A stretch of DNA of 64,000 nt from an uncultured Candidatus Saccharibacteria bacterium (GCA_964573095.1 CAZNIK010000001.1:313004-377003); one strand, 5' to 3'. Shown: positions 1,814 through 31,799, counted from the first letter of the stretch. The notes: a model not told the origin generated them from the letters alone. Numbers and translations: made by a program.

Positions 1814-2432
1814 ATTTTTTGGAAGCGTGTATCTCTAATTGACGTGCTACAAAGTCCCAGTTGACCACCTGCCACCAATTTTCTATGTAGTCTGGACGTC
1901 TATTTTGATACTTTAAATAATAGGCATGCTCCCACACATCTAAACCAAGTAGTGGACTGACTCCATCCATTATCGGCGAATCTTGGTTTGGGGTGCTGGT
2001 AATTTCAAGTTTGCCGTCTTTTTGGATTAACCACGCCCACCCGCTGCCAAATCTGCCAATGGCCGCCTCGGCAAATTTTGTCTTAAAATTGGCCAAGTCT
2101 CCAAAATCACGCTCAATCAATTCCGCAAGTTTGCCTTGCGGCTCGGGTGCAGCATCTTGACCCATCATTTGCCAAAAAAGTGAATGATTATAATGCCCGC
2201 CTCCGTTATTCCTCACCGCAACTTGCACAGCTTCTGGTAACCCCTCAAGATTTTGGAGGATTTCCTCAATCGGTTTTGTAGCCCACTCACTACCCGTTAA
2301 TGCCGCATTAAGTTTATCGATATAGGCTTGATGATGCTTGCCATGATGAATCTCCATGGTCCTCGAGTCTATGTATGGCTCCAGCGCGTCATAGCCATAT
2401 GGTAAATTTGGTAATGTAAATCCCATGTGCAT
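1806..2432 (-). CDS. sodA: Fe/Mn superoxide dismutase
   Basis: [13 protein letters not shown]...HHGKHH N-terminus and the DVWEHAYYL metal-ligand motif. Confidence 0.95.
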
Positions 2433-2453
2433 TGCCTTTCGTTATACCACTTA

Positions 2454-3110
2454 TTATAGCGTCTTCTTTGTTGTTGAATTGTCACGACGCCAGTCTTCGA
2501 TCTTAGCGTGGTTTCCCTCCAAAAGCACACGCGGAACCTTCATCCCGCGAAATTCCTCTGGCCGAGTATAGTGTGGGTGTTCTATGGTATGACCGTCCGA
2601 AAAACTCTCTAGCTCCGCACTGGTTTCGCCACCAAGCACGCCAGGTAGCAGACGAACAACTGAGTCAACTAACACCATCGCCGGAAGCTCACCCCCCGTG
2701 ACAATGTAGTCACCAATTGAGATAGTTTGATCAATTATTGACAGCACCCGCTCATCAATCCCTTCATAGCGCCCACAGACAATAATCATCCCCTTTTTTT
2801 GATTTGCAATTTCTTGAGACACGGCTTGAGTAAGCTGTCTACCCCTTGGCCCCATATAGTAAGTTAGGGACGAGGGGTCTTGTGTTTTGGCATGCTCAAT
2901 AGCAGCAAAAAGCGGCTCGGGCTTCAATAGCATTCCGTCTCCCCCGCCGTAGACAATGTCATCTACTTGCTTTCTGTCGCCAACTCCAAAATCACGAAGA
3001 TTGATATAGCTGTAGTCAACAATACCCTTGTGTTTTGCCTTATATAGCATGCTGGCTTCGAGGGCGCTCGGAAACATGCCAGGGAAAAGGGTAATAATTT
3101 GAATTTTCAT
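2454..3110 (-). CDS. trmD: tRNA (guanine37-N1)-methyltransferase
   Basis: Full-length match to the TrmD pattern (ITLFPGMF..., GRYEGIDERV, GGELPAMVL). Confidence 0.95.
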   Translation of the reverse strand: MKIQIITLFPGMFPSALEASMLYKAKHKGIVDYSYINLRDFGVGDRKQVDDIVYGGGDGMLLKPEPLFAAIEHAKTQDPSSLTYYMGPRGRQLTQAVSQEIANQKKGMIIVCGRYEGIDERVLSIIDQTISIGDYIVTGGELPAMVLVDSVVRLLPGVLGGETSAELESFSDGHTIEHPHYTRPEEFRGMKVPRVLLEGNHAKIEDWRRDNSTTKKTL

Positions 3111-3128
3111 CTTTCTTCCATTATATAG

Positions 3129-3152
3129 AAAAACCCCAAGAAAGGGGTTTTT
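3129..3152 (-). terminator. Hairpin AAAAACCCC-N6-GGGGTTTTT downstream of the KH-domain gene
   Basis: Perfect 9-bp stem with T-runs on both strands, seen directly in the sequence. Confidence 0.5.
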
Positions 3153-3243
3153 CTATCACATAAAGCTCCCATTCATCGCTTATGAATGTCTCGCTGAGCT
3201 TTTTTGTTTTTTTGTCCCTGCTTTTTTTCAGTGACTAGATAGA

Positions 3244-3678
3244 TTATACATCAAGATCGTCAAGATCTTCTAGCTCTTTTCTGGTCTTGGCGACAACGTC
3301 GCTCTGTTTTTCCTCGACGAGCTCATCAACAACTTCATCCTCATCTTTTTTCTTGCTGACACCAGACTCTTCGCTCTTCGACCAGGCCTCATCACCCCGA
3401 TCCTCTTGCTTTCGCTGCTCGGGTGCAACTCCGTTATCGACAATTTTTAAGTTGTAGCGAGCGTCATTTTTTGTTCCTAACGCTCTTAAAAGAGTCCGCA
3501 CACTTTGGGCGGTCGCACCGCGTTTGCCAATTACCCTACCCAAATCTTCTGGGTCAACTGTCAACTCTAACAAAACACCCTTCTCGTCAATTGTTCTTGC
3601 GATTTTAACCTCGTCCGGTTTGGTTACGAGAGATTTTATAACAAACTCGACAAATTGCTCGTCAATACTCACAGGCAC
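3244..3678 (-). CDS. KH-domain RNA-binding protein (YlqC/KhpA-like) with a long acidic C-terminal tail
   Basis: The N-terminal ~75 aa match the UPF0109/KH pattern (VIGKRGATAQSVRTLL). The C-terminal ~65 aa are low-complexity and rich in E/D/K. Confidence 0.8.
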   Translation of the reverse strand: MPVSIDEQFVEFVIKSLVTKPDEVKIARTIDEKGVLLELTVDPEDLGRVIGKRGATAQSVRTLLRALGTKNDARYNLKIVDNGVAPEQRKQEDRGDEAWSKSEESGVSKKKDEDEVVDELVEEKQSDVVAKTRKELEDLDDLDV

Positions 3679-3771
3679 ACTCCTCGATTACTGTAATTTA
3701 GATTAGCACTACTATTATATCAAAACCCGAACCCATCCCTCCACATTTTCCGAAAGGTATGTAGATATCGA

Positions 3772-4869
3772 CTAGCTTCTTTGTCCAAGTAGCTGCTGTC
3801 GTTTTATAGTGGCGGCGTATTCTTTTCTTAACCAGTTGAGCCCATCAATGATCAGCTGCCTTTCGGCTTGAAACTCCTTTTTCGACATTTCAAAAAAATG
3901 CTTTTGATCTCGGCGCTGTTTTAGAGTTTTAGCGTGACCGTTAAGCCCAATTTCGGCTGCCAGCTCTATGCAGGTTTCGACCATTTGGTCAGCTTCGTAT
4001 ACTTCGTCCTCATCAAGAAGTGACGGCTCTTTTTCGATCGCATACTGTCGAACGGCATCCAAGAAGCTAGTCCCTTCTTCGGATATACGGATGTTGATAA
4101 TGTGATTATCGTAATTTTTTTTGACTTCGACATAGCGTTTCTCATACACGAGTTCGGTAAGCTTTCTTCCGAACACGTCGGGTTCCATTTCAAGTTCTGC
4201 CGCCACATCTTGAGAGCAAGGTATTTCGTTTGTTTCGAAATATAGCCAGTTACCATTATTACCTTTTCTGAGCGCTTGATCAGAAAGGTGCTCAAGAATC
4301 TTGACCGTCGTGGGCGCATACAAATATGGTCTACCTATTTTTTGCTCCGGGCCATCTTCGCTATAGCGCTCGACAGCTTCATACACCGTCTCTACTAATG
4401 AGGAGCCGCGAGCGGTGAGGCTCAGTTCACTCTCTTCATCGCCGTGCGCTTTATAAACTACGGCATTTTTAGCCTCAAGCCTTCGACTAGCAACCTTGTA
4501 GGCACTTGGGTCAGACTTTCTACCGTACAGATCGCGAACTACAAGATGCGGCCGGGGTCCCAGAATAACGCCTTGATTTTGATCCAAAGCGACCAAAATT
4601 TCTTTTTGGCAAATTCCGAGCTTGGTTTTTTTGTGATCAATATGTTCTGGAAGCGTCACATTAATTGACGCCAAAACTCGGGAGCTGAACTCCTTCAACA
4701 AACCTGGGTCGGGGTTGGTTTGGCCATTTCCGCCAAAGCCTTCATCTAACTGTTCGAGCCAAAGTTGGCCACTCACAGCTTCACCATGGCCAGCAGCAAC
4801 GCCTCGAAAATAGTTGTCGAGTTCTGGATTCCCACCGCCAGTTAGTTGTTGACTCTCTGGACTTTTCAT
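3772..4869 (-). CDS. Hypothetical protein with two winged-helix-like segments
   Basis: Long ORF. I prefer the ATG at 4869, which is preceded by AAGGGGA (SD) and TATAAT, over the GTG at 4911. Two MarR-like wHTH-looking stretches; no family recognised. Confidence 0.55.
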   Translation of the reverse strand: MKSPESQQLTGGGNPELDNYFRGVAAGHGEAVSGQLWLEQLDEGFGGNGQTNPDPGLLKEFSSRVLASINVTLPEHIDHKKTKLGICQKEILVALDQNQGVILGPRPHLVVRDLYGRKSDPSAYKVASRRLEAKNAVVYKAHGDEESELSLTARGSSLVETVYEAVERYSEDGPEQKIGRPYLYAPTTVKILEHLSDQALRKGNNGNWLYFETNEIPCSQDVAAELEMEPDVFGRKLTELVYEKRYVEVKKNYDNHIINIRISEEGTSFLDAVRQYAIEKEPSLLDEDEVYEADQMVETCIELAAEIGLNGHAKTLKQRRDQKHFFEMSKKEFQAERQLIIDGLNWLRKEYAATIKRQQLLGQRS

Positions 4870-4969
4870 ACGCAGTATCCCCTTATTATAAAAGATTCGG
4901 TTATATTCCACAAACTTGAAATATTTCTTGTGTTATAGTGAAAGCTTAAGCACGCGAGAGGAAATAGGC

Positions 4970-5230
4970 ATGCCAAATTCAAAAGATCAATCTGACCAAG
5001 AACACCAACACACACATATTCAATTCAACATTGACGTTCAAAAAACTCCCACCCTCTATGCGGATTCATACCTTATAGTCTCGAACGAAAACGCAGTCAC
5101 CCTCAATTTTGCCCAGGCAATGCCCGACCCAAAGCAACAAAACATTGTCTCGCGAGTTGCGATGAGTCGAGTCCAAGCAAAGGAATTTGTGAAAACGCTC
5201 GAAGACCATATCGCAAAATACGAAGTATAG
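4970..5230 (+). CDS. Small protein, DUF3467-like
   Basis: ATG at 4970 preceded by GAGAGGAAA. The core YADSYLIVSNENAVTLNF resembles DUF3467 as I remember it. Confidence 0.5.
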   Translation: MPNSKDQSDQEHQHTHIQFNIDVQKTPTLYADSYLIVSNENAVTLNFAQAMPDPKQQNIVSRVAMSRVQAKEFVKTLEDHIAKYEV

Positions 5231-5263
5231 GCGCGCGGCCCCACTTCTTAATCAATCCATATT

Positions 5264-5290
5264 AAAAAACCGCCCTAGAAGGCGGTTTTT
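5264..5290. terminator. Bidirectional hairpin AAAAAACCGCC-N6-GGCGGTTTTT between convergent genes
   Basis: Perfect GC-rich stem flanked by A and T runs. Confidence 0.6.
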
Positions 5291-5319
5291 AAGACTAGCT
5301 TTTTTTCTGCACTGAATTT

Positions 5320-5853
5320 TTAGGCTTTTTTGAGTTCTTTTCGAACGGTGTTGGCTTCGATCGCAGCTATTACAAGTGCAATGCCTCCTGCGATGGTACT
5401 AAGACCGATTAGCCATACCAGCGCAACAGCACCTCCCTTGGGATTCGCAAAAATGTAGAACCCAAAGAGCGTGTAGACCACTCCCGCAAATACTTGGAGC
5501 CAGTTGTTCTTTCCCTCAAAACCGGCAACCACTTGAAGCATGCCAACAGCAACTGCCCAAATAGCAATTACGGTCAGTGCGACCAATGCACTGATTTGTG
5601 GATTAGAAAAAACATAAAGCCCCGCAACGGCACTAATTACACCAACAAGAGCTGTTCCAGCCCAACTGCCTTCACGGTTTGCAAATGCCCCAACCAGCAT
5701 AACCACACCAGTGGCAAGCAAATAAACCCCTAGCACTACCAAAAATGCTTTTAGGGTGATGCCTGGCCACGCCAAAATAAGCGCACCAAAAATTACCGAC
5801 AGCGCCCCCCATAAGCCCAATGCCCACGAAGCTGCCTTTAGTTCACTTTGCAT
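5320..5853 (-). CDS. HdeD/DUF308-type membrane protein
   Basis: 177 aa with six repeated hydrophobic helices and the G/A-rich pattern typical of DUF308. Confidence 0.7.
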   Translation of the reverse strand: MQSELKAASWALGLWGALSVIFGALILAWPGITLKAFLVVLGVYLLATGVVMLVGAFANREGSWAGTALVGVISAVAGLYVFSNPQISALVALTVIAIWAVAVGMLQVVAGFEGKNNWLQVFAGVVYTLFGFYIFANPKGGAVALVWLIGLSTIAGGIALVIAAIEANTVRKELKKA

Positions 5854-5940
5854 TGTATCTCCTCCATTAGCTTTGTAATTGCACTATACCACTACGACTA
5901 ACGGATACAAACCATAAGCATTTTCGCTTGTTTGGGAGGC

Positions 5941-6111
5941 TTATTTTTCTACCCGAACGTCTTTAAACGGCGCTCTGTTAGATTTTACGTTTATGAACTT
6001 GCCGGTTTTGGTATCTCTCTCTACATAGCGCTTATTTTTCGGATTGAACGTTTGTGATCGGCCACGAATGCGCCCCACTCTGCCGTGTCCTTTTGGTCCA
6101 TTCTTTGCCAT
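5941..6111 (-). CDS. Small basic protein (56 aa), hypothetical
   Basis: Not in the ORF track because it is under 60 aa. ATG preceded by GGAGGAGGGAG. Translation: MAKNGPKGHGRVGRIRGRSQTFNPKNKRYVERDTKTGKFINVKSNRAPFKDVRVEK. Confidence 0.5.
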   Translation of the reverse strand: MAKNGPKGHGRVGRIRGRSQTFNPKNKRYVERDTKTGKFINVKSNRAPFKDVRVEK

Positions 6112-6194
6112 AACTCCCTCCTCCTTTAGAATTTATGAATTGCGTATTATTTGATTCACATACATCAGTAGCTGCTTCCATCACTATTTTATCA

Positions 6195-6219
6195 ATTTCT
6201 CAAGATTATTTTGAGAAAT
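6195..6219. promoter_or_regulatory. Perfect inverted repeat ATTTCTCAA-N7-TTGAGAAAT, 30 nt upstream of the nuclease start
   Basis: Read directly from the sequence. Its function (operator or hairpin) is unknown. Confidence 0.3.
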
Positions 6220-6248
6220 CTTATATTTTTTCGTGATAGGCTTTATTC

Positions 6249-7199
6249 ATGGAATCAAAGTCTTGGCACAACCCCGTCTTCAAAAAACTTGCAGCTTCTG
6301 AGCTGGGTGGAAGCGGTGGGCATACTTCTGGGATTGTGCCGATAAATAGTACCCGAAGCTATTTTGGAACACCCAAAAAGCCAGCGACGCACAAAATACA
6401 CCAAATTGTAATTGAGTTTTGGCACGACGATGCCAGTAAAACGATTACAACAAATGTGAACTATCATGTCGCACCGACACACCGCCGCCAATATCATGTT
6501 ACGGGTAATATTTTTCCTGCCTACAAGAAAGCTGGGGCCAAAGTTGGGGACATTGTGGTTTTCTGGAAATCACGGAATAACGAAAATGACTTTAAAGCAG
6601 AGCTTATTGCCAAGAATTCCGCACGTTGGATCGAAGCAGAAAAAAACGGCAGCAGCTTGTCTTCTAAAGGGGGCACACTCCGACTAAGCCCTCCTGGGTT
6701 GATAAATTCAATGGACTTTGCGGTTCTCGATGATACGAGTGATTATGCAATTGTCTCTGATATCGAAGACACGTTTACTGACAATAGCTTTCCGACGGTC
6801 CCGCGCGAAGGAAGAAAAAAGCAAGGTGAGAGATATGTGACCTATCGCAGTAAGCGAAAAGGAGATTACGCACTAAAAAAACAGGCTTACGTGTGTCAAA
6901 TTGAATCGAGCCACAAAACCTTCACAACCCCAGCCGGCGTTCCCTATATGGAAAAACACCACCTTATCTCAATGAAGTTTTACGAGGAGTACACCAACGA
7001 TCTGGATGATATCCATAATATCGTTAGCCTGTGTCCGACCTGCCACAGAAAAATTCACTACGGGAAAAAGTCGGAAGTTTCTGACATGCTTGAATTATTA
7101 TTCAAAAAACAAAGTCCAATGCTCGAACGTGCAGGCTTCTTCATCAGTTTGACGGAGCTCAAGAAAAAATACGGAGTAGGCTTACGTCCCCTTTTGTAG
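6249..7199 (+). CDS. Putative restriction endonuclease: EcoRII-N/B3-like DNA-binding domain plus C-terminal HNH nuclease
   Basis: The N-terminal FKKLAASELGGSGGHTSGIVPI resembles the EcoRII N-domain motif (K-L-S-A-N-D-T-G-x-x-G-G-H-Q-x-G-x-x-I-P, from memory). The C-terminus has HHLIS...N-x8-LCPTCHRKIH (HNH). It is convergent with, and overlaps, an m5C methyltransferase gene. Confidence 0.7.
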   Translation: MESKSWHNPVFKKLAASELGGSGGHTSGIVPINSTRSYFGTPKKPATHKIHQIVIEFWHDDASKTITTNVNYHVAPTHRRQYHVTGNIFPAYKKAGAKVGDIVVFWKSRNNENDFKAELIAKNSARWIEAEKNGSSLSSKGGTLRLSPPGLINSMDFAVLDDTSDYAIVSDIEDTFTDNSFPTVPREGRKKQGERYVTYRSKRKGDYALKKQAYVCQIESSHKTFTTPAGVPYMEKHHLISMKFYEEYTNDLDDIHNIVSLCPTCHRKIHYGKKSEVSDMLELLFKKQSPMLERAGFFISLTELKKKYGVGLRPLL

Positions 7200-8237
7200 G
7201 CGAGGGCTGTTGGTAAATAGAGTTTCGAGCACGCTTTTTGCAACGTTAAGCGTTATTGCGTTGCCGGCCTGTCGATAAAGCTGTGTGTCAGAAACGCCGA
7301 CTTTCTGAGCCTTCTCAGCAAAAGAATCATCAAATCCCTGCAAACGAAATGCTTCTTTTGGTGTTAATTTTCTGATTCTATCGTGACCATTTTGGGCGGG
7401 TAGTACCTTTTGCCCATCAAACGCGCCTTGAATAAAGTTGTCAGAATAATAGTTATCTTGATTGGCTCTGTGCATCTTATGCATCGTTGCCGTAAGTGGT
7501 CTGGCGTGAATTCTGTTAATTTCTGATTTCGAATAATAGCCACCGCTGCCGTGTTCCAAAATGGTTTTTATCATTTTTTTTGAAAGGTAATATTTTTCAT
7601 CCACTTCGCGCTCCAAAAGATGCCACACAGTTTTGTACTGAGTTTTGCTGATTGGCTGATCAAATTGAGCATTAGAAATATAACGGAAATCTTTTTTTCT
7701 TTTGACGCCAATAAAGTAGAGTCTCCGTCTGTGTTGTGGCACCCCAAAATCAATACTATTAAGAAGCTCGGTTCTCAAGTTATAGCCAAGTTCCTCAGTT
7801 AATATTTTTACTATTCTCTGGTAGGTTTTGCCTTGGTCGTGCGTTTTTATTCCCCTCACATTCTCCAAGATGAAAAAGTCTGGTTTTTTTACCGACAGAA
7901 TCTTTGCTATTTGGAAAAATAATGTGCCTCGGGCGTCTTCAAAACCGGCCTTGTCTCCCATTAAGCTAAAAGGCTGGCAAGGGAAGCCTGCAAAAAGTAC
8001 ATCAAATTGTGGAATACTTTTTATGTCCGCCAAGGAAAGTTTAGAAATATCACCGATTGGCACCTCGTTTTTATGAAGTCGAAAGTTCGCATGATAGGTT
8101 TTCAGTGCGTGGGCATCTATCTCACTAAAGCCAACGCATTCTGTCGCAAACCCAATATGTTTTGCTGTTTGCTCAATCGCGGCGCGGAACCCGCCAACAC
8201 CTGCAAACAAATCTACATACCGAATTGGCTTTGTCAT
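7182..8237 (-). CDS. DNA (cytosine-5)-methyltransferase (M2)
   Basis: Motifs I DLFAGVGG, IV GFPCQPFS, VI ENV, VIII QHRRRLYFIG and X GNAITLNV. I prefer the ATG at 8237 (MTKPIRY); the track start at 8285 overlaps the upstream gene. Confidence 0.9.
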   Translation of the reverse strand: MTKPIRYVDLFAGVGGFRAAIEQTAKHIGFATECVGFSEIDAHALKTYHANFRLHKNEVPIGDISKLSLADIKSIPQFDVLFAGFPCQPFSLMGDKAGFEDARGTLFFQIAKILSVKKPDFFILENVRGIKTHDQGKTYQRIVKILTEELGYNLRTELLNSIDFGVPQHRRRLYFIGVKRKKDFRYISNAQFDQPISKTQYKTVWHLLEREVDEKYYLSKKMIKTILEHGSGGYYSKSEINRIHARPLTATMHKMHRANQDNYYSDNFIQGAFDGQKVLPAQNGHDRIRKLTPKEAFRLQGFDDSFAEKAQKVGVSDTQLYRQAGNAITLNVAKSVLETLFTNSPRLQKGT

Positions 8238-8244
8238 GGCTCTA

Positions 8245-9402
8245 CTATACCAACCTTTCCATAAGCTTTTTTGCAATAAGCTCACTTAACAGAGGTGGTA
8301 CTGCGTTACCGATTTGGTTGTACCACTGAGAGTATGGCCCCTCAAAAATATAGTCGTCTGGGAAGCTTTGAACTCGAGCCGCCTCTCTGGGCGTAAGGCC
8401 ACGCGCTTCGTAAGGATGAATGTACATGTTACAGTCAAATTTCATGTGGGAAGTGATTGTTTTGCACACTTTATTGGGATCAAGTTTAAAATATTTGTCT
8501 TTGAATATATGCGAACGACTTTTATAAGGCATTATGTGAGCAATGCTTTGGTGGTCAGATTTTCCACCTGGCGGTAAAAGTTTATAGATTTCCAGATCAC
8601 GAGGGTTGTTATATCGCGCCTTATGATTATAGGCGTACAGAGGGGGGGTGCCATGATTGATCCTCGCAATGTAGTTATTTGGCGGTGAGCGTGAAAAGAT
8701 TTTGTCCTTAAAAAACCCACTGTGGGCTGCTTCAATACTTGTATTGCCCTTTTCTCGCCTTGCCGATAGCCTTCTTAGTCCCCACAGTGCGTCTTTGAGG
8801 GGGACTACAGTGGCTGTCTTGGCGCGCTCAATGTCTACGAAAAGCTGACGCAATTGTTGACGAGGATTTGGTAGTTCATCCTTCTTGATGCCAATGTATA
8901 TAAGCCGTTCACGATTTTGCGGTATGCCATAATCTTTGGCGTTTAAAACAACATAATCTGCCATATACCCAATCGCATTAAATGCATCCACCACCACCGG
9001 TGCCACCGACAGCATTCCCTTGACGTTTTCCATAAGAATAATCTTAGGCTTTGTTATTTCAATCGCGTTGATGAATTTTTTAAATAACACATTTCGCGGA
9101 TCATTCAATAAGCGCTGACGGTTGGCCATGCTAAAGCCTTGACACGGTGGCCCACCAACTACAACTGAGATATTGGTTTTCCGCAGTATATCTGTATGTT
9201 TGTCGATAAAATCATCAATATCACTATGGATAATTTTTTCTGCGTTTGCCAAGGGGTGGTTTTTTCGATAGGTAAGGACCGAGGAGAGATCGTTGTCATT
9301 TGCCAAAAAAATCTCAAAACCAGCACGACTAAACCCAAGAGACAGCCCACCGGGACCACAAAATAAATCTACAACAAGAGGTTGTTTTGTTTTTTTCGTC
9401 AT
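8245..9402 (-). CDS. DNA (cytosine-5)-methyltransferase (M1)
   Basis: Motifs I DLFCGPGG, IV GGPPCQGFS, VI ENV, VIII QNRERLIYIG and X GNAVPPLL. Confidence 0.9.
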   Translation of the reverse strand: MTKKTKQPLVVDLFCGPGGLSLGFSRAGFEIFLANDNDLSSVLTYRKNHPLANAEKIIHSDIDDFIDKHTDILRKTNISVVVGGPPCQGFSMANRQRLLNDPRNVLFKKFINAIEITKPKIILMENVKGMLSVAPVVVDAFNAIGYMADYVVLNAKDYGIPQNRERLIYIGIKKDELPNPRQQLRQLFVDIERAKTATVVPLKDALWGLRRLSARREKGNTSIEAAHSGFFKDKIFSRSPPNNYIARINHGTPPLYAYNHKARYNNPRDLEIYKLLPPGGKSDHQSIAHIMPYKSRSHIFKDKYFKLDPNKVCKTITSHMKFDCNMYIHPYEARGLTPREAARVQSFPDDYIFEGPYSQWYNQIGNAVPPLLSELIAKKLMERLV

Positions 9403-9478
9403 TGTCTACAATTATAGTCTAGGCTGACACAAAAAGTCAGGGGCGATTCTTACTTTCCAATTGCATATCCAAAATAGG

Positions 9479-10414
9479 CTACTCGTCTGGTGTGAGCCTA
9501 GTCGCACCGACGCCGCGAGACACTATGCCATCGCGAAGACCAAGCAACAACAGCTGCTCGTACGAGATATTGCCCAGCTTTTGCAGTATCCCAGTCGCAC
9601 GCAACTGTGCAATCGAATTGTGACGCTGCTTGGGTCCGTTTGAAGAATCCTGCACACACCTGTGCATCATATGTATTTCTTTTGGCGTAAGCACCGTAAG
9701 ATCCCTGGTGTCCAGCGGACGCATATCGATTAGTTTTTCTTCAAAAGCCGCCATGATCAGCTCGTCTTTTGCGAGATTGTTTTTTCTTTGGGCATTAGAA
9801 AATAGCCGAAACTGATCAGTTGGATGTATTCCTACGCGCTTGGATATCTCGGCGTTAGTGAGCGCCAGCGAGCCTAAGAATTTGGCTTCTTGAGGTGTAA
9901 GTATTAGGGAGCTTTCTTCGCGGTTATAGGGACTCGGCCTTTCAGAAGCCTTTGGTTTTGGCAACTGCATTTCGTCCCCAACTTCAACCAAATCCCGCTC
10001 AAAATTGATAATTGCGATTAAATCATCGCCCGTAAAATAACCCCTCGTAATCAAGGAAGGTTTTGTCGGTTCATTGGAAGTTGTCCTTGAGCCAAATACA
10101 CGCTGCCCCGCAATAGAGTGTTTTGCATACAGTTCATCTATCTCTTGCTTTGGTGAGACATTTCTCTTTGCCACGGCGTACGTTATTTCGTCGCGGTCTT
10201 TAAAACCGAATGACCAGCTATTGCCCATCAACTCCGAAAACACACCAAGATCACGCCGGGTAATTTCAATATTTCTATGCGGTTCAAGAATCGACTCTAC
10301 CTCGGAAAAAAACTCGGAAAGCGACGTACGTTTTGGGTCCATAGCACCTTTGAGGGCATATCGAAGCGGCGTTTCGTAAGCTTGCAGCCATTGCTCTTGT
10401 TGCAGTTCACTCAT
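9479..10414 (-). CDS. Hypothetical protein with two LuxR/GerE-like HTH segments
   Basis: LTPQEAKFLGSLALTNAEISKRVGIHPTDQFRLFSNAQRK and LTPKEIHMMHRC...SIAQLRATGILQKLG resemble LuxR-type HTH modules. The N-terminal ~170 aa are unrecognised. Confidence 0.4.
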   Translation of the reverse strand: MSELQQEQWLQAYETPLRYALKGAMDPKRTSLSEFFSEVESILEPHRNIEITRRDLGVFSELMGNSWSFGFKDRDEITYAVAKRNVSPKQEIDELYAKHSIAGQRVFGSRTTSNEPTKPSLITRGYFTGDDLIAIINFERDLVEVGDEMQLPKPKASERPSPYNREESSLILTPQEAKFLGSLALTNAEISKRVGIHPTDQFRLFSNAQRKNNLAKDELIMAAFEEKLIDMRPLDTRDLTVLTPKEIHMMHRCVQDSSNGPKQRHNSIAQLRATGILQKLGNISYEQLLLLGLRDGIVSRGVGATRLTPDE

Positions 10415-11943: not shown

Positions 11944-12472
11944 TCCTTATTTTCTTGAGCCCTAATAGTATTATCTTGCCAATATCCTCATATTCGATTT
12001 TTTCTAATGCGTCGGCTGTTGAGAACCAACGAATATCGTTCATCCACTCTTCTGGTTTGAGCTTGTTGGTGTCGCCTTTGGCGTGTACAAGAAATATCTC
12101 GGTGGTCATAAGCACCAAGCTGGTTGCCCGTCGGTATCGAAAGTTAATCTTTCCGAGCCAATTCATGACGGTCATTTCTGATAGTCCCGTCTCTTCGCGT
12201 ATTTCTCGCTCGGCCGTCTGTTTGGCAGACTCACCTTCCTCAATGTGACCTTTCGGTATTGTCCAACGATTTTTTGCGTCTTGAATAAGCAATATCTCGA
12301 TCTCTTGACTCTTTGGATTGCGGCGAAAAACCATGCCGCCGCTCGTTGGCTCGCGGACCACTTCGTTGATTGCGGGCTTGCGCCGCGGGATAAATTTCTT
12401 GAAGCCTTCTATGGGCTTAGGTCTTTTCATTCTTGGTCGTATCTTCTTTCTTAGATGCTTTCTTGTGCTCAT
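11930..12472 (-). CDS. NUDIX hydrolase
   Basis: Nudix box GHIEEGESAKQTAEREIREETGL. The start is uncertain (12472 or 12430). Confidence 0.85.
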   Translation of the reverse strand: MSTRKHLRKKIRPRMKRPKPIEGFKKFIPRRKPAINEVVREPTSGGMVFRRNPKSQEIEILLIQDAKNRWTIPKGHIEEGESAKQTAEREIREETGLSEMTVMNWLGKINFRYRRATSLVLMTTEIFLVHAKGDTNKLKPEEWMNDIRWFSTADALEKIEYEDIGKIILLGLKKIRSAGL

Positions 12473-12920
12473 TGTCGAGCGTTTTGGCGAGCTTGGGATT
12501 AATTTGTCTCAGAAAAGTTCCAAGTACACCATTGATAAATTTTGATGAGTTTTCTCCACCAAAGCCCTTTGCGAGCTCAACCGCTTCGTTGATGACTACC
12601 TTTGGCGGTGTTTCTGGATGATTCTCAAGTTCATAGGCGCCGATCCGAAGTATCCAATGATCGACCTTGGCAATTTGGTCAAGTGGCCACTCCGGGGCGA
12701 TCGGCTGAATTTTAGAATCAAGCTGCGTCGAGTTCTCGCTTACCCCTTTTGCGAGCTGAATGATGAACTCATTGTCATCAAGCTGTGCTCGATACCGACT
12801 AATATTTCTGTCTACGATTTCTTTTTGGTCGACTGTCTCGTCTCCACACGCCCTACGAAACGACTCTTCATAGAGTGATTGCAAGACAATTATTCGACCA
12901 AGATGACGATTTGATGCCAT
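12417..12920 (-). CDS. nusB: Transcription antitermination factor NusB
   Basis: NusB pattern (R..A.Q.LY..., INEAVELAK.FG), with a short K/E-rich tail. Confidence 0.9.
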   Translation of the reverse strand: MASNRHLGRIIVLQSLYEESFRRACGDETVDQKEIVDRNISRYRAQLDDNEFIIQLAKGVSENSTQLDSKIQPIAPEWPLDQIAKVDHWILRIGAYELENHPETPPKVVINEAVELAKGFGGENSSKFINGVLGTFLRQINPKLAKTLDNEHKKASKKEDTTKNEKT

Positions 12921-12957
12921 ATTGTTAATTCGTAGTATCCCTACTAGTTAGTATATC

Positions 12958-13128
12958 TTATTTCTCCGCAGCGCGATTCTGCGTGGCTTTTTTTGCACCA
13001 GATTCGCGGCGGGTAGTGTAGGCCTTGACTGGACTTTTGGCGTTTACCGCTCGAGCCAACTTAACAACAAGATGACTGCGTCGAGATCCAGTGCGTCTAT
13101 GGCTGGTGCGCTTCTTGGGCTTACCCAT
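12958..13128 (-). CDS. rpmF: 50S ribosomal protein L32
   Basis: Not in the ORF track (56 aa). The N-terminus MGKPKKRTSHRRTGSRRSH matches the L32 N-terminal consensus. Confidence 0.85.
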   Translation of the reverse strand: MGKPKKRTSHRRTGSRRSHLVVKLARAVNAKSPVKAYTTRRESGAKKATQNRAAEK

Positions 13129-13285
13129 ACAATATCCATCCTTTCTTTAGGTGAGGTGGGCTAATAAAGTTACTTGGTATTTTACACGTAGTTCCGTCTT
13201 GTATCAAGAAATTGACATTTACAAAGAAACGATTTTATGTAGTTGAATATTGACTTTTATTGCTTTTTGTGTTATTTTTGAGATA

Positions 13286-13630
13286 ATGGAAAAATATGAG
13301 TACAACAGATCGCCTTCTACGTTCGGTGCAAAGGGCAGACTCTTTCGAGGCCTGGCAGCCATAGCGGGCATATCAGCCATAGCGACAACTGGGTACGTCG
13401 CCAGCAAAGATCTACAAGAAGACGCGAGAACGCCGATTGATTGCTACCTTAGTCCACCCGCAGAAGCAGGTGACACCGAGTTTGGCCTATCAAGAGAAGC
13501 GTATCCGAAATTGGATGACATCGATCCAACCAATGTTGACATTGCGGTAATTCCAGGAAACACAGAGGGCGTCGGCAATGACCGCATACTAAACCAAGGC
13601 GATACCGTCCGTGTCTGCGTAAACGATTAA
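13286..13630 (+). CDS. Membrane-anchored small protein, LysM-like (paralogue 1)
   Basis: N-terminal TM segment. GDTEFGL...QGDTVRV spacing resembles a degenerate LysM. Tandem paralogue of the next gene. Confidence 0.45.
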   Translation: MEKYEYNRSPSTFGAKGRLFRGLAAIAGISAIATTGYVASKDLQEDARTPIDCYLSPPAEAGDTEFGLSREAYPKLDDIDPTNVDIAVIPGNTEGVGNDRILNQGDTVRVCVND

Positions 13631-13675
13631 CCTAAAGCGTTTTTTGCCAACATAAAAACCCGCTACAATAACGCT

Positions 13676-14053
13676 GTGCGCAAATCAAATGAAGTCCTAT
13701 CCACCAATTCAATGAGCCCTTCGGAATTATATCCAAGCAGAGAAGGTAGCATGATTGCCGTCGCCGCAACAGTACTCGCGCTGGTAGCGGGTTTTTATGC
13801 TGCAAAAGAATTGATGAATGAAGGGCAAACAAAGTGTAGTGGACAACAAAAAGTTGAGGTAAACGGCGGTGACACAGTATACGGAATTATCGACGAGAAC
13901 ATAAAAGTCACGGATGGTTACATAGACTTTTCACAAGTCCCCGTAACCGTACTCCGCTATAGAGAAAGCCAAAAACCAACCGAAGTTGAAAATGCAGGAC
14001 AGATAATGCCCGGTGACATTGCCGTCCTGCCCACCACCTGTCACGAAGAATAA
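13676..14053 (+). CDS. Membrane-anchored small protein, LysM-like (paralogue 2)
   Basis: TM segment and VEVNGGDTVYGII...MPGDIAVLP pattern. The start may be the ATG at 13712. Confidence 0.45.
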   Translation: MRKSNEVLSTNSMSPSELYPSREGSMIAVAATVLALVAGFYAAKELMNEGQTKCSGQQKVEVNGGDTVYGIIDENIKVTDGYIDFSQVPVTVLRYRESQKPTEVENAGQIMPGDIAVLPTTCHEE

Positions 14054-14059
14054 TTTACG

Positions 14060-16513
14060 CTAGACCACAAAATTGACTAGCTTTTTCGGGATGTACACAG
14101 TTTTGCGCACGTCTTTTACTAGATAAGGTTGAACTTTGGTATCTGCTTTGGCAGCCGCAACAATTGTGTCTTGGTCTGCATCAGCTGGCATTAATATATT
14201 CGCCCTTACCCTGCCGTTGACTTGGACAACAATGGTTATTTCTTCGAGCGTCAAGTATTTTTCATCATGCACAGGCCAACTGTTCACATGGACAGATCCC
14301 TCGTTGCCCATGTCGTGCCACAACTCTTCGGCAATGTGTGGCGCAAACGGGGCAACACAAGCCACCAGGTTTGAGAGTGACTCTTGCCACACTTTGTGCT
14401 TTACAAATCCATTCTCGGCTTTTTCAAGGTACAACTTGTTTACCGCCTGCATTGCGGCGGCAATTGCCGTATTGTAGTGATTTCTCTCAATGTCTTCACT
14501 CATTTTTTTAATTGTGGAGTGGGTGATGTTTTGCAGTTTTTTTTGCAGCTCTTGGGTAACGCTACCTTCGTTCGCTGCTTGATACTCTTGAACTAACGCC
14601 CATAATCTTGCCAAAAAACGATAGCAACCTGGTACACCTTGTGGGTCCCAACGAGCACCAAGTTCTAGGGGCGCCGCAAACATCAGATAAGTCCTCAGTG
14701 CGTCTGCTCCGTATCCGCTATCAATAATTTCGAGGGGATCAACCCCGTTACCCTTCGATTTTGAAAAAGCACTGCCGTCACTCGCAGTGACTTTTCCATT
14801 AAACAACATGTGCTTAAACGGTTCTGGATTATCAACGATTCCAATTTTGGTAAAGAAACGAGTAATAAATCGAGCATAGAGCAAATGAGCAGTGGCGTGA
14901 TCCCCCCCATTATAGAAGTCAACTGGCATCCATTTGTTCACGACGTGAGAATCGAATATTTTTTCCTCGTTTGACGGATCAAAGTATCGAAACATGTACC
15001 AACTGCTACAAATATACGTGTCGAGCGTGTCCGTTTCGCGCTCGGCGGGACTCCCGCACTGAGGGCAGGCAACTTTGAGCCAATCCGTGGCACGTGCTAA
15101 CGCACTTCGGCCATCACCGCTGGGCTGATAGTCTTTCAAGATTGGCAGCTCAACAGGTAAATCTTCGTCTGGAACTAATACCAAACCACATGCCTGGCAA
15201 TTGATAATCGGTATTGGTGCTCCCCAGTAACGCTGACGACTGACGCTCCAATCACGCATTTTGTAGTTGGTTTTCTCGGCGGCTTGACCTTTTTGAACCA
15301 ACTCGTCGGTAATTTTTTCTCGAGCTTCTTCAGAAGCCATACCATTGTACGACCCAGAGTTGATCATCGTGCCTTCTTCGTGAGTACACTCATCATCACT
15401 CGCGTCATTTTGAACCACTCTGATAATGGGCAGCTCATACTTCTTGGCAAATTCGTGATCTCGTTCGTCGTGAGCCGGAACAGCCATGATTGCTCCGGTG
15501 CCATACCCCATCAACACATAGTCAGCTATCCATACCGGTAACTTCTCATTGTTTACTGGATTGATGGCATATGCCCCTATAAAGACACCTGTTTTGTCTT
15601 TCTCTGCTTGACGTTCAATTTCTGTCTTTTTTTGCGCCTGTTTAACATATTCGGCAGTGAGTTGCTTGTGTTCCGCAGATGCAATCAGATTCACAAGTGG
15701 GTGTTCTGGAGCTAGAACCATAAAAGTTGCGCCGAATAGTGTATCTGGTCGCGTCGTAAAAACAGTGACTGTCTCGTCCATTCCCTCAAGCCGAAACACA
15801 ACCTCAGCGCCCTTACTCTTGCCTATCCAGCTCTTTTGCGCAAGCTTAACGCTGGCGGTCCAATCCAGCTCATCAATCGCGTCGAGTAGCTCGTCGGCAT
15901 ATTCGGTTATCTTGAAAAACCATTGTTTCACTTCCTTTTTTTCTACCTGCGGATCTCCAGGCCCATCGTGCCTCCAGCACTTGCCGTCGATCACTTGCTC
16001 GTTCGCGAGTACCGTCTGACACTTCTCGCACCACCACTGCATTCGTGCATCTTGATACGCTAAGCCGTTTTGATACATCTGACTAAAAATCCACTGTGTC
16101 CACTTGTAATAGATCGGTTCATGAGTAGCGATTTCTTTTGACCAATCATTACTCCAGCCCATCGCTTTGTACTGCTTGTGGTAGCTAGGAATGATATTCG
16201 CCATGCTTTCTTGGGGCGAAACACCAGCCTTAATGGCGTAATTTTCTGCAGGAAGACCAAATGCATCCCAACCAACAGGGTGATAACTTTCGTACCCTTG
16301 TTGGCGCTTGTAGCGTGCCTTTACGTCGCTGATCGTGTAGTTCATCGCGTGTCCAATATGAATACCGGCACCGCTTGGGTAATTAAACATACTCATAGCG
16401 ATATACTTCGGTTTAGAGCTTGCTAAATCGGCAATATAGACGTTAGTCTCGTCCCAGATTTTTTGCCACTTTGGCTCGATTTCTTTCGGATTATACCTCT
16501 TCATTAGGTGCAT
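14060..16513 (-). CDS. leuS: Leucyl-tRNA synthetase
   Basis: 817 aa with HIGH (HIGHAMNY) and KMSKS-like (FSKSKGN) motifs and the LeuRS CP1/zinc region. Confidence 0.97.
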   Translation of the reverse strand: MHLMKRYNPKEIEPKWQKIWDETNVYIADLASSKPKYIAMSMFNYPSGAGIHIGHAMNYTISDVKARYKRQQGYESYHPVGWDAFGLPAENYAIKAGVSPQESMANIIPSYHKQYKAMGWSNDWSKEIATHEPIYYKWTQWIFSQMYQNGLAYQDARMQWWCEKCQTVLANEQVIDGKCWRHDGPGDPQVEKKEVKQWFFKITEYADELLDAIDELDWTASVKLAQKSWIGKSKGAEVVFRLEGMDETVTVFTTRPDTLFGATFMVLAPEHPLVNLIASAEHKQLTAEYVKQAQKKTEIERQAEKDKTGVFIGAYAINPVNNEKLPVWIADYVLMGYGTGAIMAVPAHDERDHEFAKKYELPIIRVVQNDASDDECTHEEGTMINSGSYNGMASEEAREKITDELVQKGQAAEKTNYKMRDWSVSRQRYWGAPIPIINCQACGLVLVPDEDLPVELPILKDYQPSGDGRSALARATDWLKVACPQCGSPAERETDTLDTYICSSWYMFRYFDPSNEEKIFDSHVVNKWMPVDFYNGGDHATAHLLYARFITRFFTKIGIVDNPEPFKHMLFNGKVTASDGSAFSKSKGNGVDPLEIIDSGYGADALRTYLMFAAPLELGARWDPQGVPGCYRFLARLWALVQEYQAANEGSVTQELQKKLQNITHSTIKKMSEDIERNHYNTAIAAAMQAVNKLYLEKAENGFVKHKVWQESLSNLVACVAPFAPHIAEELWHDMGNEGSVHVNSWPVHDEKYLTLEEITIVVQVNGRVRANILMPADADQDTIVAAAKADTKVQPYLVKDVRKTVYIPKKLVNFVV

Positions 16514-26467: not shown

Positions 26468-26752
26468 CTATTTACTTCTCACGTTTGATAGCTCGTATAG
26501 GCCCAGCAGCTCCGCAACCGCCTGTTCTTGGGCTTTTTCTGAACTGGAACTAAGTTTTTCCTTGATATGTGTACGAACATGGTTCTCGAGTATTAGTTTG
26601 TTGAGCGAGCCGATAGATTTTTGAATAGCCAGGCTCTGCGTCAGTATATCCATACAGTAATCTTCGTTCTCAATCATTTTCTGGATGCCACGCATCTGAC
26701 CCTCGAGTATCTTAGAACGATGCAAGGCGCGTTTTTTTAGATCAGAAATCAT
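26468..26752 (-). CDS. csoR: CsoR/RcnR-family metal-sensing repressor
   Basis: 94 aa with the LxRIEGQxRGIxxMI-like helix (ILEGQMRGIQKMIENEDYCMDIL) and the conserved Cys/His positions. Confidence 0.85.
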   Translation of the reverse strand: MISDLKKRALHRSKILEGQMRGIQKMIENEDYCMDILTQSLAIQKSIGSLNKLILENHVRTHIKEKLSSSSEKAQEQAVAELLGLYELSNVRSK

Positions 26753-26762
26753 ATTAAAATAA

Positions 26763-26781
26763 TAATACCCCCTGGGGGTAT
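26763..26781. promoter_or_regulatory. CsoR-type operator AATACCCCC-T-GGGGGTATT
   Basis: Perfect 9+9 inverted repeat 11 nt upstream of the csoR start. It matches the GC-tract palindrome style of known CsoR boxes. Confidence 0.7.
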
Positions 26782-26784
26782 TGT

Positions 26785-26812
26785 CAATATAAAAATATTA
26801 CCTCATTTTGCA
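26785..26812 (-). promoter_or_regulatory. Candidate csoR promoter (TTGCAA-16 nt-TATATT)
   Basis: Hexamers read on the minus strand. The operator begins 4 nt after the -10 element. Confidence 0.4.
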
Positions 26813-26830
26813 AAAGTTACCTCAGTTTTC

Positions 26831-26951
26831 TATTGGTGCGATACGTGGATGAAAAGTTACACATTATTAGAGAAGAAATTGAATATTGGCGTAACGTTCT
26901 AGCTATTCCATATCAAGAGTTTAAGCAAGATGCCACTAAATTACGGAGATA
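26831..26951 (+). repeat. Junction repeat copy D (most diverged; right arm only)
   Basis: ATTGGTGCGATACGTGG versus AATGGTGCCAGATAGCGG. Downstream patches (ACACATT, GAGTTTAA) align with copies A and C. The match is weak. Confidence 0.3.
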
Positions 26952-27051
26952 AGGGACTTACACTTTCTAATGCGTCAATCTTATTTTAGAGATATGTTGA
27001 TAAAAGATGTTACTTTATAGGTGGTAATTAGTTATTTATACCGAGAGAGTT

Positions 27052-29103: not shown

Positions 29104-29287
29104 CTGTAAAGGACAGTTCCGCCTTAGAAGAGAACTTTCTTTTCTCTATAAAGGCTTGGCCAGCATTCTGTCTAATTCTAAACTTAGTGCCGTGATTATG
29201 TCCTGTACGTGCATCAAAATCTACTAATGCGGTGTAAAAACATAGTTTTTCCGGCTGGTTTTTACATAGACGCACATAACAAAGTTT

Positions 29288-29476
29288 ACACGCCCGAAAT
29301 TAGTGTCTTTTACAGATTGGCTGCAAAGAAAAAGGACGCCGAAGCGTCCGAAATTTCCCAAATGGTGCCAGATAGCGGACTTATTGCTAACTATAAATCA
29401 CAGTAACGTTGACAGCTACAAGCTAAGGGGACTAGTTCAGCAGTTCAACCTTGCTGGCGATTTGATAGCACCTTGA
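29288..29476 (+). repeat. Junction repeat copy C (left arm + core + right arm)
   Basis: Contains the exact 20-mer AATGGTGCCAGATAGCGGAC (29361-29380). The left arm is homologous to copies A and B, with a 24-nt hairpin insertion. Confidence 0.7.
29303..29476 (+). CDS. Small conserved ORF (57 aa from GTG), paralogue C
   Basis: ...WCQIADLLLTINHSNVDSYKLRGLVQQFNLAGDLIAP. It aligns without gaps to the ORF at 30817-30960, with many synonymous differences. The start codon is uncertain and there is no clear SD. Confidence 0.35.
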   Translation: MSFTDWLQRKRTPKRPKFPKWCQIADLLLTINHSNVDSYKLRGLVQQFNLAGDLIAP

Positions 29477-29553
29477 TATAGATTCAAGTAGAATAGATGT
29501 ATAGGTGAGCTGGGAAGTCTGGTCGGCGCTTATTTTTTAATGCAAGGACTTCT

Positions 29554-30765: not shown

Positions 30766-30775
30766 CATTATGTTT

Positions 30776-30960
30776 GAGTCCTTTTTGAGTTGAACGATAA
30801 AACACCGATTTTCTCGGTGCTTAACAGATACAGTAGCTTGCAATTTCAATGGTGCCAGATAGCGGACACATTTCTAACACTTAATCCCAGCAATATAGAC
30901 AATTACGAGCTCAAACATCTCGTAAATGAGTTTAATCTTTCTGGCAGTTTTATATTATAA
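30776..30960 (+). repeat. Junction repeat copy A (left arm + core + right arm)
   Basis: Exact 20-mer at 30848-30867. The left arm is roughly two-thirds identical to 31533-31611 by hand alignment. Confidence 0.7.
30817..30960 (+). CDS. Small conserved ORF (47 aa from GTG), paralogue A
   Basis: ...WCQIADTFLTLNPSNIDNYELKHLVNEFNLSGSFIL. Same frame and length as paralogue C from the W codon onward. The stop codon directly abuts the CIRCE element. Confidence 0.35.
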   Translation: MLNRYSSLQFQWCQIADTFLTLNPSNIDNYELKHLVNEFNLSGSFIL

Positions 30961-30987
30961 TTAGCACTCTTGACACGAGAGTGCTAA
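30961..30987. promoter_or_regulatory. CIRCE element (HrcA operator) TTAGCACTC-N9-GAGTGCTAA
   Basis: Exact match to the CIRCE consensus half-sites with a 9-nt spacer, 75 nt upstream of hsp20. Confidence 0.85.
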
Positions 30988-30998
30988 TTTTCTAAAAT
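30970..30998 (+). promoter_or_regulatory. Sigma-70-type promoter TTGACA-17 nt-TAAAAT for hsp20
   Basis: The -35 hexamer lies inside the CIRCE spacer and the -10 element follows the right half-site. Confidence 0.6.
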
Positions 30999-31061
30999 CA
31001 AGATAGAAGCTAGTTATGCTTCTCTAAGTAAGTTACTAATAATAACGAAAGGAGAAATATA

Positions 31062-31493: not shown

Positions 31494-31515
31494 TCTAGTT
31501 CGGCCTTGCAGAAAA

Positions 31516-31546
31516 AAAGAGACTCTTTATTTGAGTCTCTTTTGAG
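31516..31546 (+). terminator. Rho-independent terminator after hsp20
   Basis: AAAGAGACTC-N7-GAGTCTCTTT followed by a T-rich run. Confidence 0.7.
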
Positions 31547-31611
31547 TTTGACGGAAAAGCACTAATTTCATTGGCGTTTAACAGATGAGCAATATCAGAA
31601 ATCAATGGTGC
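31533..31611 (+). repeat. Junction repeat copy B (left arm only, fused to the tRNA-Gly 3' end)
   Basis: Homologous to 30776-30856. Homology ends at CAATGGTGC, and TGGTGC is the complement of the tRNA-Gly GCACCA terminus. Confidence 0.65.
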
Positions 31612-31682: not shown

Positions 31683-31707
31683 TCGTTATTGAGATAAACA
31701 GTAAGTT

Positions 31708-31783: not shown

Positions 31784-31799
31784 CAATATTACGGAATAT

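Follow-up and report, generated by a model that had tools for sequence, protein, structure and literature searches.

A cassette of one B3-HNH endonuclease and two m5C methyltransferases in uncultivated bacteria and archaea, with CCTGA/TCAGG as its candidate site

A stretch of 64,000 nucleotides (nt) from an uncultured Candidatus Saccharibacteria bacterium (GCA_964573095.1 CAZNIK010000001.1:313004-377003), here called the window, carries at positions 6,249 to 9,402 a gene for a putative nuclease, R, that converges on two genes for DNA methyltransferases, M1 and M2. This arrangement raises the question whether the three genes form one restriction-modification (R-M) system and, if so, which DNA sequence it reads and why two methylases are kept. 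The data are best explained by a cognate Type II system, in which a B3-HNH endonuclease is accompanied by two non-redundant 5-methylcytosine (m5C) methylases acting on an asymmetric site. For this function, which is predicted from sequence, we estimate a probability of about 0.6. The genes and the domains of R, with lengths in amino acids (aa) and model confidence as predicted local distance difference test (pLDDT), are as follows.

6249..7199, + strand: R, restriction endonuclease gene; 316 aa; EcoRII-N/B3-like reader, linker and HNH
6255..6698, + strand: predicted EcoRII-N/B3-like DNA-binding pseudobarrel of R, aa ~3-150; assigned by Foldseek and hhalign, no direct Pfam match
6699..6848, + strand: inter-domain linker of R, aa ~151-200; partly of low confidence (pLDDT <50 at aa 154-160)
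6849..7178, + strand: McrA-type HNH (beta-beta-alpha-Me) domain of R; PF01844, 25.9 bits; E. coli McrA 6ghc
7182..7199, both strands: tail-to-tail overlap of R and M1, 18 nt
7182..8237, - strand: M1, downstream m5C DNA methyltransferase; 351 aa from the ATG at 8237
8245..9402, - strand: M2, upstream m5C DNA methyltransferase; 385 aa; first gene of the M2-M1 operon

A conserved three-gene cassette

The first-pass annotation of this DNA had described an R-M locus, in which a nuclease gene overlaps by 18 nt with the first of two separate m5C methyltransferase genes. All three open reading frames (ORFs) and the convergent overlap were recovered, and the ORFs, their domains and a strict synteny bore out this description: the locus is a genuine three-gene R-M cassette. 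R carries both strings quoted in that annotation, KKLAASELGGSGGHTSGIVPI and HHLIS...LCPTCHRKIH. The longest ORF of M1 spans 7182-8285 (- strand) and begins with GTG at 8285; the start is probably the ATG at 8237, which lies 7 nt past the M2 stop and gives the product length of 351 aa found in loci L001-L004. That R, M1 and M2 are real genes and not chance ORFs follows from the 37 homologues of R, which are full-length (~300 aa) and 40-91% identical to it.

The order R-> <-M1 <-M2 was kept in all 14 distinct versions of the cassette with enough contig, 13 of which were available with DNA and one from gene calls only. The close abutment of R and M1 is likewise kept among relatives, with an overlap of 0 to 18 nt. 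Identity across the versions ranged from 40 to 91% for R, from 53 to 98% for M1 and from 52 to 98% for M2; outside the window's own lineage it was 53-69% for M1 and 52-63% for M2. The versions came from Saccharimonadales, Candidatus Saccharibacteria, Wildermuthbacteria, Woesearchaeota and unclassified metagenome contigs, and their flanking genes were unrelated. Since the same three genes recur in distant hosts with unrelated flanks, the unit is a mobile three-gene cassette; all carriers found to date are uncultivated, ultra-small bacteria and archaea. Linkage of the endonuclease gene to the methyltransferase genes, by which Type II systems are recognised, was seen in 14 of 14 versions. Because the gene order is kept in every one of them and the flanks are unrelated, R is the cognate restriction enzyme and not a stray McrA or homing nuclease. 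The proposal that R belongs with the methylases thus stood, and the strict synteny refutes the alternative listed with it, a homing or methyl-directed nuclease unrelated to them.

Both methylases are complete enzymes of the Dcm type, as had been read from the sequence before. M1 matched PF00145 over its full length with 279 bits and TIGR00675 (dcm) with 302 bits, M2 with 237 and 204 bits, respectively, and motifs I, IV (PCQ), VI (ENV), VIII (QxRxR), IX and X were readable in both translations. M1 and M2 are ~24% identical to each other and are therefore not recent duplicates.

The closest annotated relatives of M2 (45-46% identity) and M1 (38-41%) were found on the plasmids pTS1 of Treponema saccharophilum and pA27BH1 of Pedobacter, with pair identities of 41-46% to pTS1 and 38-45% to pA27BH1. 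On both replicons the M2 and M1 relatives are adjacent and in the same order, and after them come genes annotated as AAA ATPase and 'LlaJI family restriction endonuclease', which is the arrangement of a LlaJI-type operon. Authentic LlaJI methylases (pNP40, L028) were 25-31% identical over the catalytic core, and no sequence similarity of the R N-domain to the R1 N-termini of pTS1, pA27BH1 and pNP40 was detected by BLASTP or with the family hidden Markov model. Therefore, the two kinds of system have their logic and methylase lineage in common but not their specificity, and in the simplest reading a single methylase pair has come to work with two different restriction machineries. The next-best annotated relatives of M1 (38%) were methylases of small enterobacterial R-M plasmids such as pKPN2, and M1 aligned end to end with the Dcm-type enzyme 3lx6. 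A Dcm-like target-recognition domain in M1, corresponding to a CC(W)G half-site, was considered but found no support: with the C-terminal half as query, only motifs IX-X aligned.

Reader and nuclease domains of R

The full-length AlphaFold2 (AF2) model of R, built from the homologue alignment, reached a pLDDT of 90.3 and a predicted template modelling (TM) score of 0.86, and residues 3-150 modelled alone reached a pLDDT of 93.8. In Foldseek searches of the PDB with these models, the best E-value for the N-terminal part was obtained for the N-terminal domain of H. pylori LlaJI.R1 (6c5d, E 6e-5), and the highest TM score normalised to the query (0.69, Foldseek probability 1.00) for EcoRII-N bound to DNA (3hqf). 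A probability of 1.00 was also given for 6c5d, 3zi5, 5o63, 6j9c and 5yzy. Further matches were BfiI-C (2c1l, 3zi5), UbaLAI-B3 (5o63) and B3 domains of plants such as LEC2, FUS3, VAL1 and ARF, the latter with TM scores of up to 0.76 normalised to the target. At the sequence level, distant matches of the N-domain (P0089-P0093) passed the Pfam EcoRII-N family (PF09217) with 25.5-30.7 bits at a cut-off of 25, and when the alignment of the R N-domain was compared with that of the PF09217-matching proteins, hhalign returned a probability of 98.7% (E 2.5e-16). The models (pLDDT 90-94) and hhalign thus support a seven-stranded EcoRII-N/B3 pseudobarrel as the predicted fold of the R N-terminus, in line with what the first-pass annotation had proposed from a motif.

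Invariant residues of the N-domain are K12, E18, G20, T26, G28, V30, P31, F39, H78, H83, G86, Y92, W106 and L119. The predicted DNA-reading loops, SELG..GHTSGIVP and TH...H.TGN, are nearly invariant, which suggests that the whole R family reads the same DNA sequence. This N-domain family appears to be rare, since its profile hit only 14 clusters among 1.84 billion representative proteins. One of the distant matches, P0092 (316 aa), combines a direct Pfam EcoRII-N match with an HNH_2 nuclease (PF13391) in place of the McrA-type HNH; the pairing of this reader with HNH therefore occurs with two different HNH subfamilies.

The claimed C-terminal HNH was borne out by Pfam and by the conservation of its catalytic and zinc-binding residues. 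HNH (PF01844, residues 232-271) was the only Pfam family in R, with 25.9 bits at a cut-off of 21.4, and an NCBIfam scan gave no match for R. The closest PDB sequence was that of E. coli McrA (6ghc, E 2.5e-7, aa 203-285 only), which was also the Foldseek match of the C-terminal part; the sequence matches of R in PDB and Pfam are limited to the generic HNH motif. Catalytic residues are H237/H238, N257 and H266/H270, and the zinc ligands are C216, H222, C262 and C265. H237/H238, N257, C216, H222 and C262 were invariant in the family alignment, and C265, H266 and H270 were at least 90% conserved. In the linker, Y166 and F181-P182 are conserved. As modelled, R thus consists of two confidently predicted domains joined by a linker, which corresponds to the separate recognition and cleavage domains of Type IIS enzymes.

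Full-length homologues of R (P0007, P0011, P0016, P0020, P0032) are labelled '5-methylcytosine-specific restriction enzyme/protein A' by JGI. Because of the EcoRII-N reader and the obligatory methylase pair, this McrA-type label has probably been carried over from the HNH domain alone.

Candidate site, methylase promoter and competing explanations

A scan of all 512 5-mers in the window, with expectations from a maximal-order Markov model, gave one outlier: CCTGA/TCAGG was present in 10 copies against 48.7 expected (z -6.4), and the next 5-mer had a z of -3.9. For coding DNA, synonymous codons were shuffled within each gene (300 shuffles). In 57 host ORFs, CCTGA occurred 8 times against 73.0±6.9 expected, and in the coding DNA of 11 other cassette versions 12 times against 46.4±5.9; in both sets the count was reached in 0 of 300 shuffles and the motif ranked first of 512. 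The set of 11 versions should be an independent check, as synonymous sites are presumably saturated at 40-69% protein identity. The most depleted 6-mers were extensions of CCTGA, with no preference for a flank, and its one-mismatch neighbours, including CCTGG/CCAGG and CCGGA, were found at expectation. Depletion was also seen in the related host locus L005 (2 against 10 expected) and in the flanks of L032 (6 against 19.7). A general depletion in the flanks of all cassette hosts was looked for and not found, with a pooled ratio of ~1.0 and depletion in the window lineage, L005 and L032 only. Such a pattern, with the motif depleted lifelong in the cassette but in just some of the hosts, agrees with erosion and/or counter-selection at a site that is both methylated and restricted by the cassette. 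It also lends indirect support to a sequence-specific cleavage of unmodified DNA by R.

Taking these counts together, CCTGA/TCAGG is probably the cognate site. Both of its strands contain a cytosine but differ in sequence, and for that reason two m5C enzymes would be required; that one methylase serves each strand is likewise favoured, if a shade less firmly. Here the first-pass proposal of an asymmetric site with one methylase per strand gained indirect support, in that the outlier motif is asymmetric and M1 and M2, ~24% identical, are both always kept; that this motif belongs to the enzyme is our prediction.

Other candidates and footprints were considered. The LlaJI site GACGC was rejected as a target: GACGC/GCGTC is abundant in the window (105 copies), and the LlaJI methylases are only 25-31% identical. 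Deamination of C-m5C-TGA would yield CTTGA, which was in excess in the window (205 against 160±11). A two-strand deamination footprint was rejected, as CTTGA alone was in excess and CCTAA was not, and the argument from deamination is therefore weak. Several 4-mers were depleted in the window as well, among them GGCC (142 against 198) and, to some extent, CCGG; GGCC was not depleted in cassette DNA, and its depletion in the window may reflect another system or a general bias. No m5C system for CCTGA was found in the literature searched, where the motif occurred only as the N6-methyladenine (m6A) site of a C. jejuni Type IIG enzyme (PMC4889913).

One of the surviving copies lies at the predicted methylase promoter. 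Promoter-like sites of the locus are:

9411..9440, - strand: M2-M1 operon, CTGACT-18 nt-TATAAT; 10/12 match, top of the scan
9437..9441, - strand: CCTGA copy (TCAGG on the + strand) over the -35 hexamer; 1 of 10 copies in 64 kb
6105..6132, + strand: weak, tentative site upstream of R from the promoter scan, TTGCCA-16 nt-TAGAAT

The operon site ends 8 nt before the M2 ATG, and the arrangement CCTGACTTT-N-TATAAT was found in five versions (window, L005, L032, L034, L035/L015), so that CCTGA is kept at this position although the motif is ~4-fold depleted in cassette DNA. This retention of an otherwise avoided motif gives a tentative hint that the methylase promoter is methylation-sensitive and feeds back on methylase expression. 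Methylation-sensitive control of methylase expression has been reported for LlaJI, as cited in PMC1459862.

In three versions, a LexA-like gene (LexA_DNA_bind and Peptidase_S24), 60-68% identical among them, is located directly upstream of M2 and co-directional with it. It occupies the place of the CCTGA-bearing promoter, which these versions do not have, and may serve as an alternative control gene or link the system to the SOS response. The LexA-like helix-turn-helix-S24 genes are:

L033, 11473-12084
L007/L017, 11159-11764
L006/L011/L012, in L011 at 6721-7326

Very-short-patch repair (Vsr) corrects T:G mismatches that arise after deamination of m5C. A vsr gene joins the cassette in five distinct versions, in three different positions and orientations, and the window version is without it. 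Its presence beside the cassette is as would be expected for active m5C methylation. The vsr genes are:

L007/L017, 7505-7906
L008, 11165-11569
L013/L031, 7118-7525
L019, 5594-5968
L033, 7808-8230

According to the proposed mechanism, R would act as a single chain. The EcoRII-N/B3 pseudobarrel would read a short DNA sequence, the asymmetric pentanucleotide 5'-CCTGA-3'/5'-TCAGG-3', and the McrA-type HNH (beta-beta-alpha-metal, zinc-stabilised), tethered by the ~50-residue linker, would cut unmethylated DNA, following the modular logic of the Type IIS enzymes BfiI, MnlI and FokI. Whether the cut is offset from the site is, in our estimate, an even bet. As the two strands of the site differ, one m5C methyltransferase would act on each, which would explain that M1 and M2 are always kept. 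The M2-M1 operon would be read from the promoter whose -35 box overlaps the conserved CCTGA, so that methylation of its own DNA could feed back, and R would be transcribed convergently with the methylases, with no room for a terminator. In its fullest form the proposal makes one joint claim: a new Type IIS-like family with an EcoRII-N reader, a McrA-type HNH and m5C-blocked CCTGA/TCAGG specificity would be confined to bacteria of the Candidate Phyla Radiation (CPR) and DPANN archaea; it would be derived from, or sister to, LlaJI-type systems, with the GTP-driven McrBC-like motor and nuclease replaced by the tethered HNH; the promoter site would be a methylation sensor, and the cassette's own DNA would have been eroded of the site by lifelong m5C methylation. 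As a whole, this claim falls somewhat short of an even chance.

Several observations weigh against the preferred interpretation. R itself had no Pfam match to PF09217 even at E 0.1, and the search of PDB sequences with the N-domain profile did not reach EcoRII; since the link runs only via P0089-P0093 and hhalign, the sequence connection to EcoRII-N is transitive and R is a divergent subfamily. Other members of the HNH clade of R are typically modification-dependent enzymes, and ScrFI is a case of two m5C methylases at a symmetric site. As to the candidate site, the cassette versions have a common ancestry, and the depletion in each is thus not fully independent of that in the others; the host-level depletion rests on the window lineage and L032, and another system in that genome could account for it. 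CCTAA, the expected deamination product of the other strand, was not in excess (42 against 55). At the promoter, L013 has CCTGT at the position of CCTGA, and the copy overlaps the -35-like TGAC core, which could be conserved for that alone. Finally, the nuclease activity, the methylated bases, the cleavage geometry, the strand assignment and the regulation are all deduced from sequences.

The competing explanation that survives best accepts a genuine R-M system, of which CCTGA is not the site; the depletion in the window would come from another system in the genome and that in the cassette from frequent exposure to such systems. Only 64 kb of the host genome are visible, and neither the flanks of most other hosts nor the replicons of the LlaJI-type relatives were depleted (19 against 19.9 in L026, 35 against 31.6 in L027). 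However, no other DNA methyltransferase surfaced in the rest of the window (PADLOC over 57 ORFs, among the best 25 of 139 matched families; Pfam over 15 ORFs), the same 5-mer ranked first of 512 in two independent data sets, and CCTGA is kept specifically at the methylase promoter and has cytosines on both strands, a prerequisite for two m5C enzymes. We thus consider this explanation unlikely.

Rather improbable is a symmetric or degenerate-palindromic site cut by an R homodimer in Type IIP-like fashion, with methylases that are redundant or split a degenerate centre between them, as at CCNGG-like sites. The pKPN2-type relatives of M1 (38%) and Dcm-type 3lx6, which we take to be CCNGG/CCWGG-type enzymes, would fit such a site, as would the slight depletion of GGCC and CCGG in the window, and Type IIP homodimers with HNH exist (Hpy99I, PacI; PMC4081073). 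The single outstanding depleted motif is, however, asymmetric; its neighbours, CCTGG/CCAGG and CCGGA among them, occur as often as expected, and cassette DNA shows no shortage of GGCC. Retention of both methylases in 14 of 14 versions at ~24% identity argues against redundancy, and the target-recognition region of M1 alone had no significant similarity to that of Dcm. Furthermore, EcoRII-N/B3 domains reportedly bind as monomers (work on 3hqf).

That R is a modification-dependent, McrA-like Type IV enzyme, merely located beside methylases whose marks it does not recognise, is very improbable. Its HNH is indeed closest to E. coli McrA and to the PADLOC Type IV model PDLC03656, its HNH-only relatives carry DUF3578/McrB-N-like or EVE reader domains, and LlaJI shows that McrBC-like machinery can switch between both modes (PMC1459862). 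This similarity is, however, limited to the nuclease domain. McrA-like Type IV enzymes have the m5C-reading N-domain of McrA and no cognate methylase, whereas R has an EcoRII-N/B3 N-terminus and is accompanied by two methylases; the three-gene synteny across distant hosts with unrelated flanks would lack an explanation, and a nuclease attacking the product of these methylases would be lethal. Just as improbable is a site-specific nicking or homing-type HNH enzyme that spreads the cassette rather than defends. In its favour, each chain of R has a single HNH active site, nicking is the activity of many phage HNH enzymes, and related HNH modules were found in 108 viral contigs. Against it, IMG/VR viral contigs, 50,697 phage records and 72,556 plasmids yielded only HNH-only matches and none to full-length R or the N-domain; linkage to protective methylases is the signature of restriction, and the Type IIS HNH enzymes MnlI and HpyAV make double-strand cuts with one active site (PMC4081073, PMC2816704).

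Other features of the window are listed here.

9479-10414, - strand: 311-aa ORF; no Pfam, NCBIfam or PADLOC match
3772-4911, - strand: 379-aa ORF; no Pfam, NCBIfam or PADLOC match
27052-29103: OLD-family ATPase in the island described below (AAA_15 and TOPRIM, Gabija GajA-like)
29554-30765: NhaA antiporter in the same island
31062-31493: Hsp20 in the same island

The 311-aa ORF is 100% identical in L001-L004 and 86% in L005. Both ORFs are conserved in the host lineage and absent from other cassette loci, and are therefore host genes and not parts of the cassette. The region 26500-31800 is an island of low guanine-cytosine content (0.33-0.42 against ~0.46), on the strand opposite to almost all its neighbours. 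This 5-kb island holds 4 of the 10 surviving CCTGA copies of the window, which suggests that it was recently acquired; no GajB-like partner of its OLD-family ATPase was seen. In L033, the cassette is surrounded (1866-7637 and 12203-14780) by Phage_rep_O, small ORFs, another OLD-family ATPase and Amidase_2, and these mobile-element-like or phage-like surroundings hint at how the cassette travels.

Comparison with known systems

The modular principle of R-M enzymes is well known, and the pairing of a B3/EcoRII-N reader with HNH is uncharacterised. In agreement with the first-pass annotation, no such enzyme was found in the literature searched, PDB sequences, NCBIfam, plasmids and phages, a search that did not cover REBASE.

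EcoRII (Type IIE/IIF, CCWGG) has an N-terminal pseudobarrel with the motif KxLxxx[DE]xGxxGxHxxGxxxP, which is common to EcoRII and R. Protection is by an m5C methylase, and the candidate site CCTGA shares CCTG with CCWGG. Unlike R, EcoRII has a catalytic domain of the PD-(D/E)XK type (EcoRII-C), an N-domain that is autoinhibitory and binds the effector, a (pseudo)symmetric site and a single methylase. UbaLAI (CCWGG) resembles R as a Type II enzyme in which a monomeric B3-like domain is joined to the catalytic part; this part is, however, MvaI-like PD-(D/E)XK, and site and methylase complement differ. In BfiI/BmrI (Type IIS, ACTGGG), a B3-like domain is fused to a non-specific nuclease as well, and an asymmetric site is cut at an offset (PMC4081073). 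There, the nuclease is of the metal-independent phospholipase-D type, located N-terminally and at the dimer interface, so that the domain order is reversed, and the methylases differ.

MnlI (CCTC 7/6) and HpyAV (CCTTC 6/5) recognise a short asymmetric site, and a C-terminal HNH cuts a few bases away (PMC4081073, PMC2816704). R has the same layout of a recognition part followed by a C-terminal HNH, with an offset cut that is a prediction by analogy, but the recognition parts of these enzymes are not known as B3-like and show no detectable sequence relationship to R. The layout of reader, linker and HNH is also that of E. coli McrA (EcoKMcrA, 6ghc), the closest HNH by sequence and structure, and of the Type IV enzymes that join DUF3578, EVE or SRA domains to HNH. 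Unlike R, these have N-domains that read modifications, lack a cognate methylase and cut modified DNA.

LlaJI of Lactococcus pNP40 uses two m5C methylases for the asymmetric site GACGC/GCGTC, whose genes precede the restriction genes, a site-specific R1 and a McrC-like R2 (PMC1459862). The present cassette likewise has two m5C methylases, an asymmetric candidate site and a B3-like reader, for which 6c5d gave the best Foldseek E-value. In the cassette, however, R converges on the methylases, and LlaJI has R1 (B3 and McrB-like GTPase) plus R2 (PD-D/ExK) where the cassette has a single reader-HNH chain. Next to the cassette, no AAA/GTPase or LlaJI-family R2 gene was present, which sets it apart from LlaJI-type systems.

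New in the present analysis are the conservation and host range of the cassette, its LlaJI-type kinship, the candidate site CCTGA/TCAGG and the possible epigenetic feedback element. The cassette adds a new pairing, a B3/EcoRII-N reader with an HNH cutter, to the modular design of restriction enzymes, and few other defence systems can be followed across both CPR bacteria and DPANN archaea. If CCTGA is confirmed, it would be, to our knowledge, a specificity lacking among characterised enzymes, and R, with its 316 aa, a compact starting point for engineering Type IIS or nicking enzymes. The recognition site of an R-M cassette seems to be predictable from its own DNA when a methylome is absent. 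Moreover, one methylase pair is seen to serve a single-chain HNH enzyme in this cassette and McrBC-like complexes in LlaJI-type systems, although these restriction machineries differ widely.

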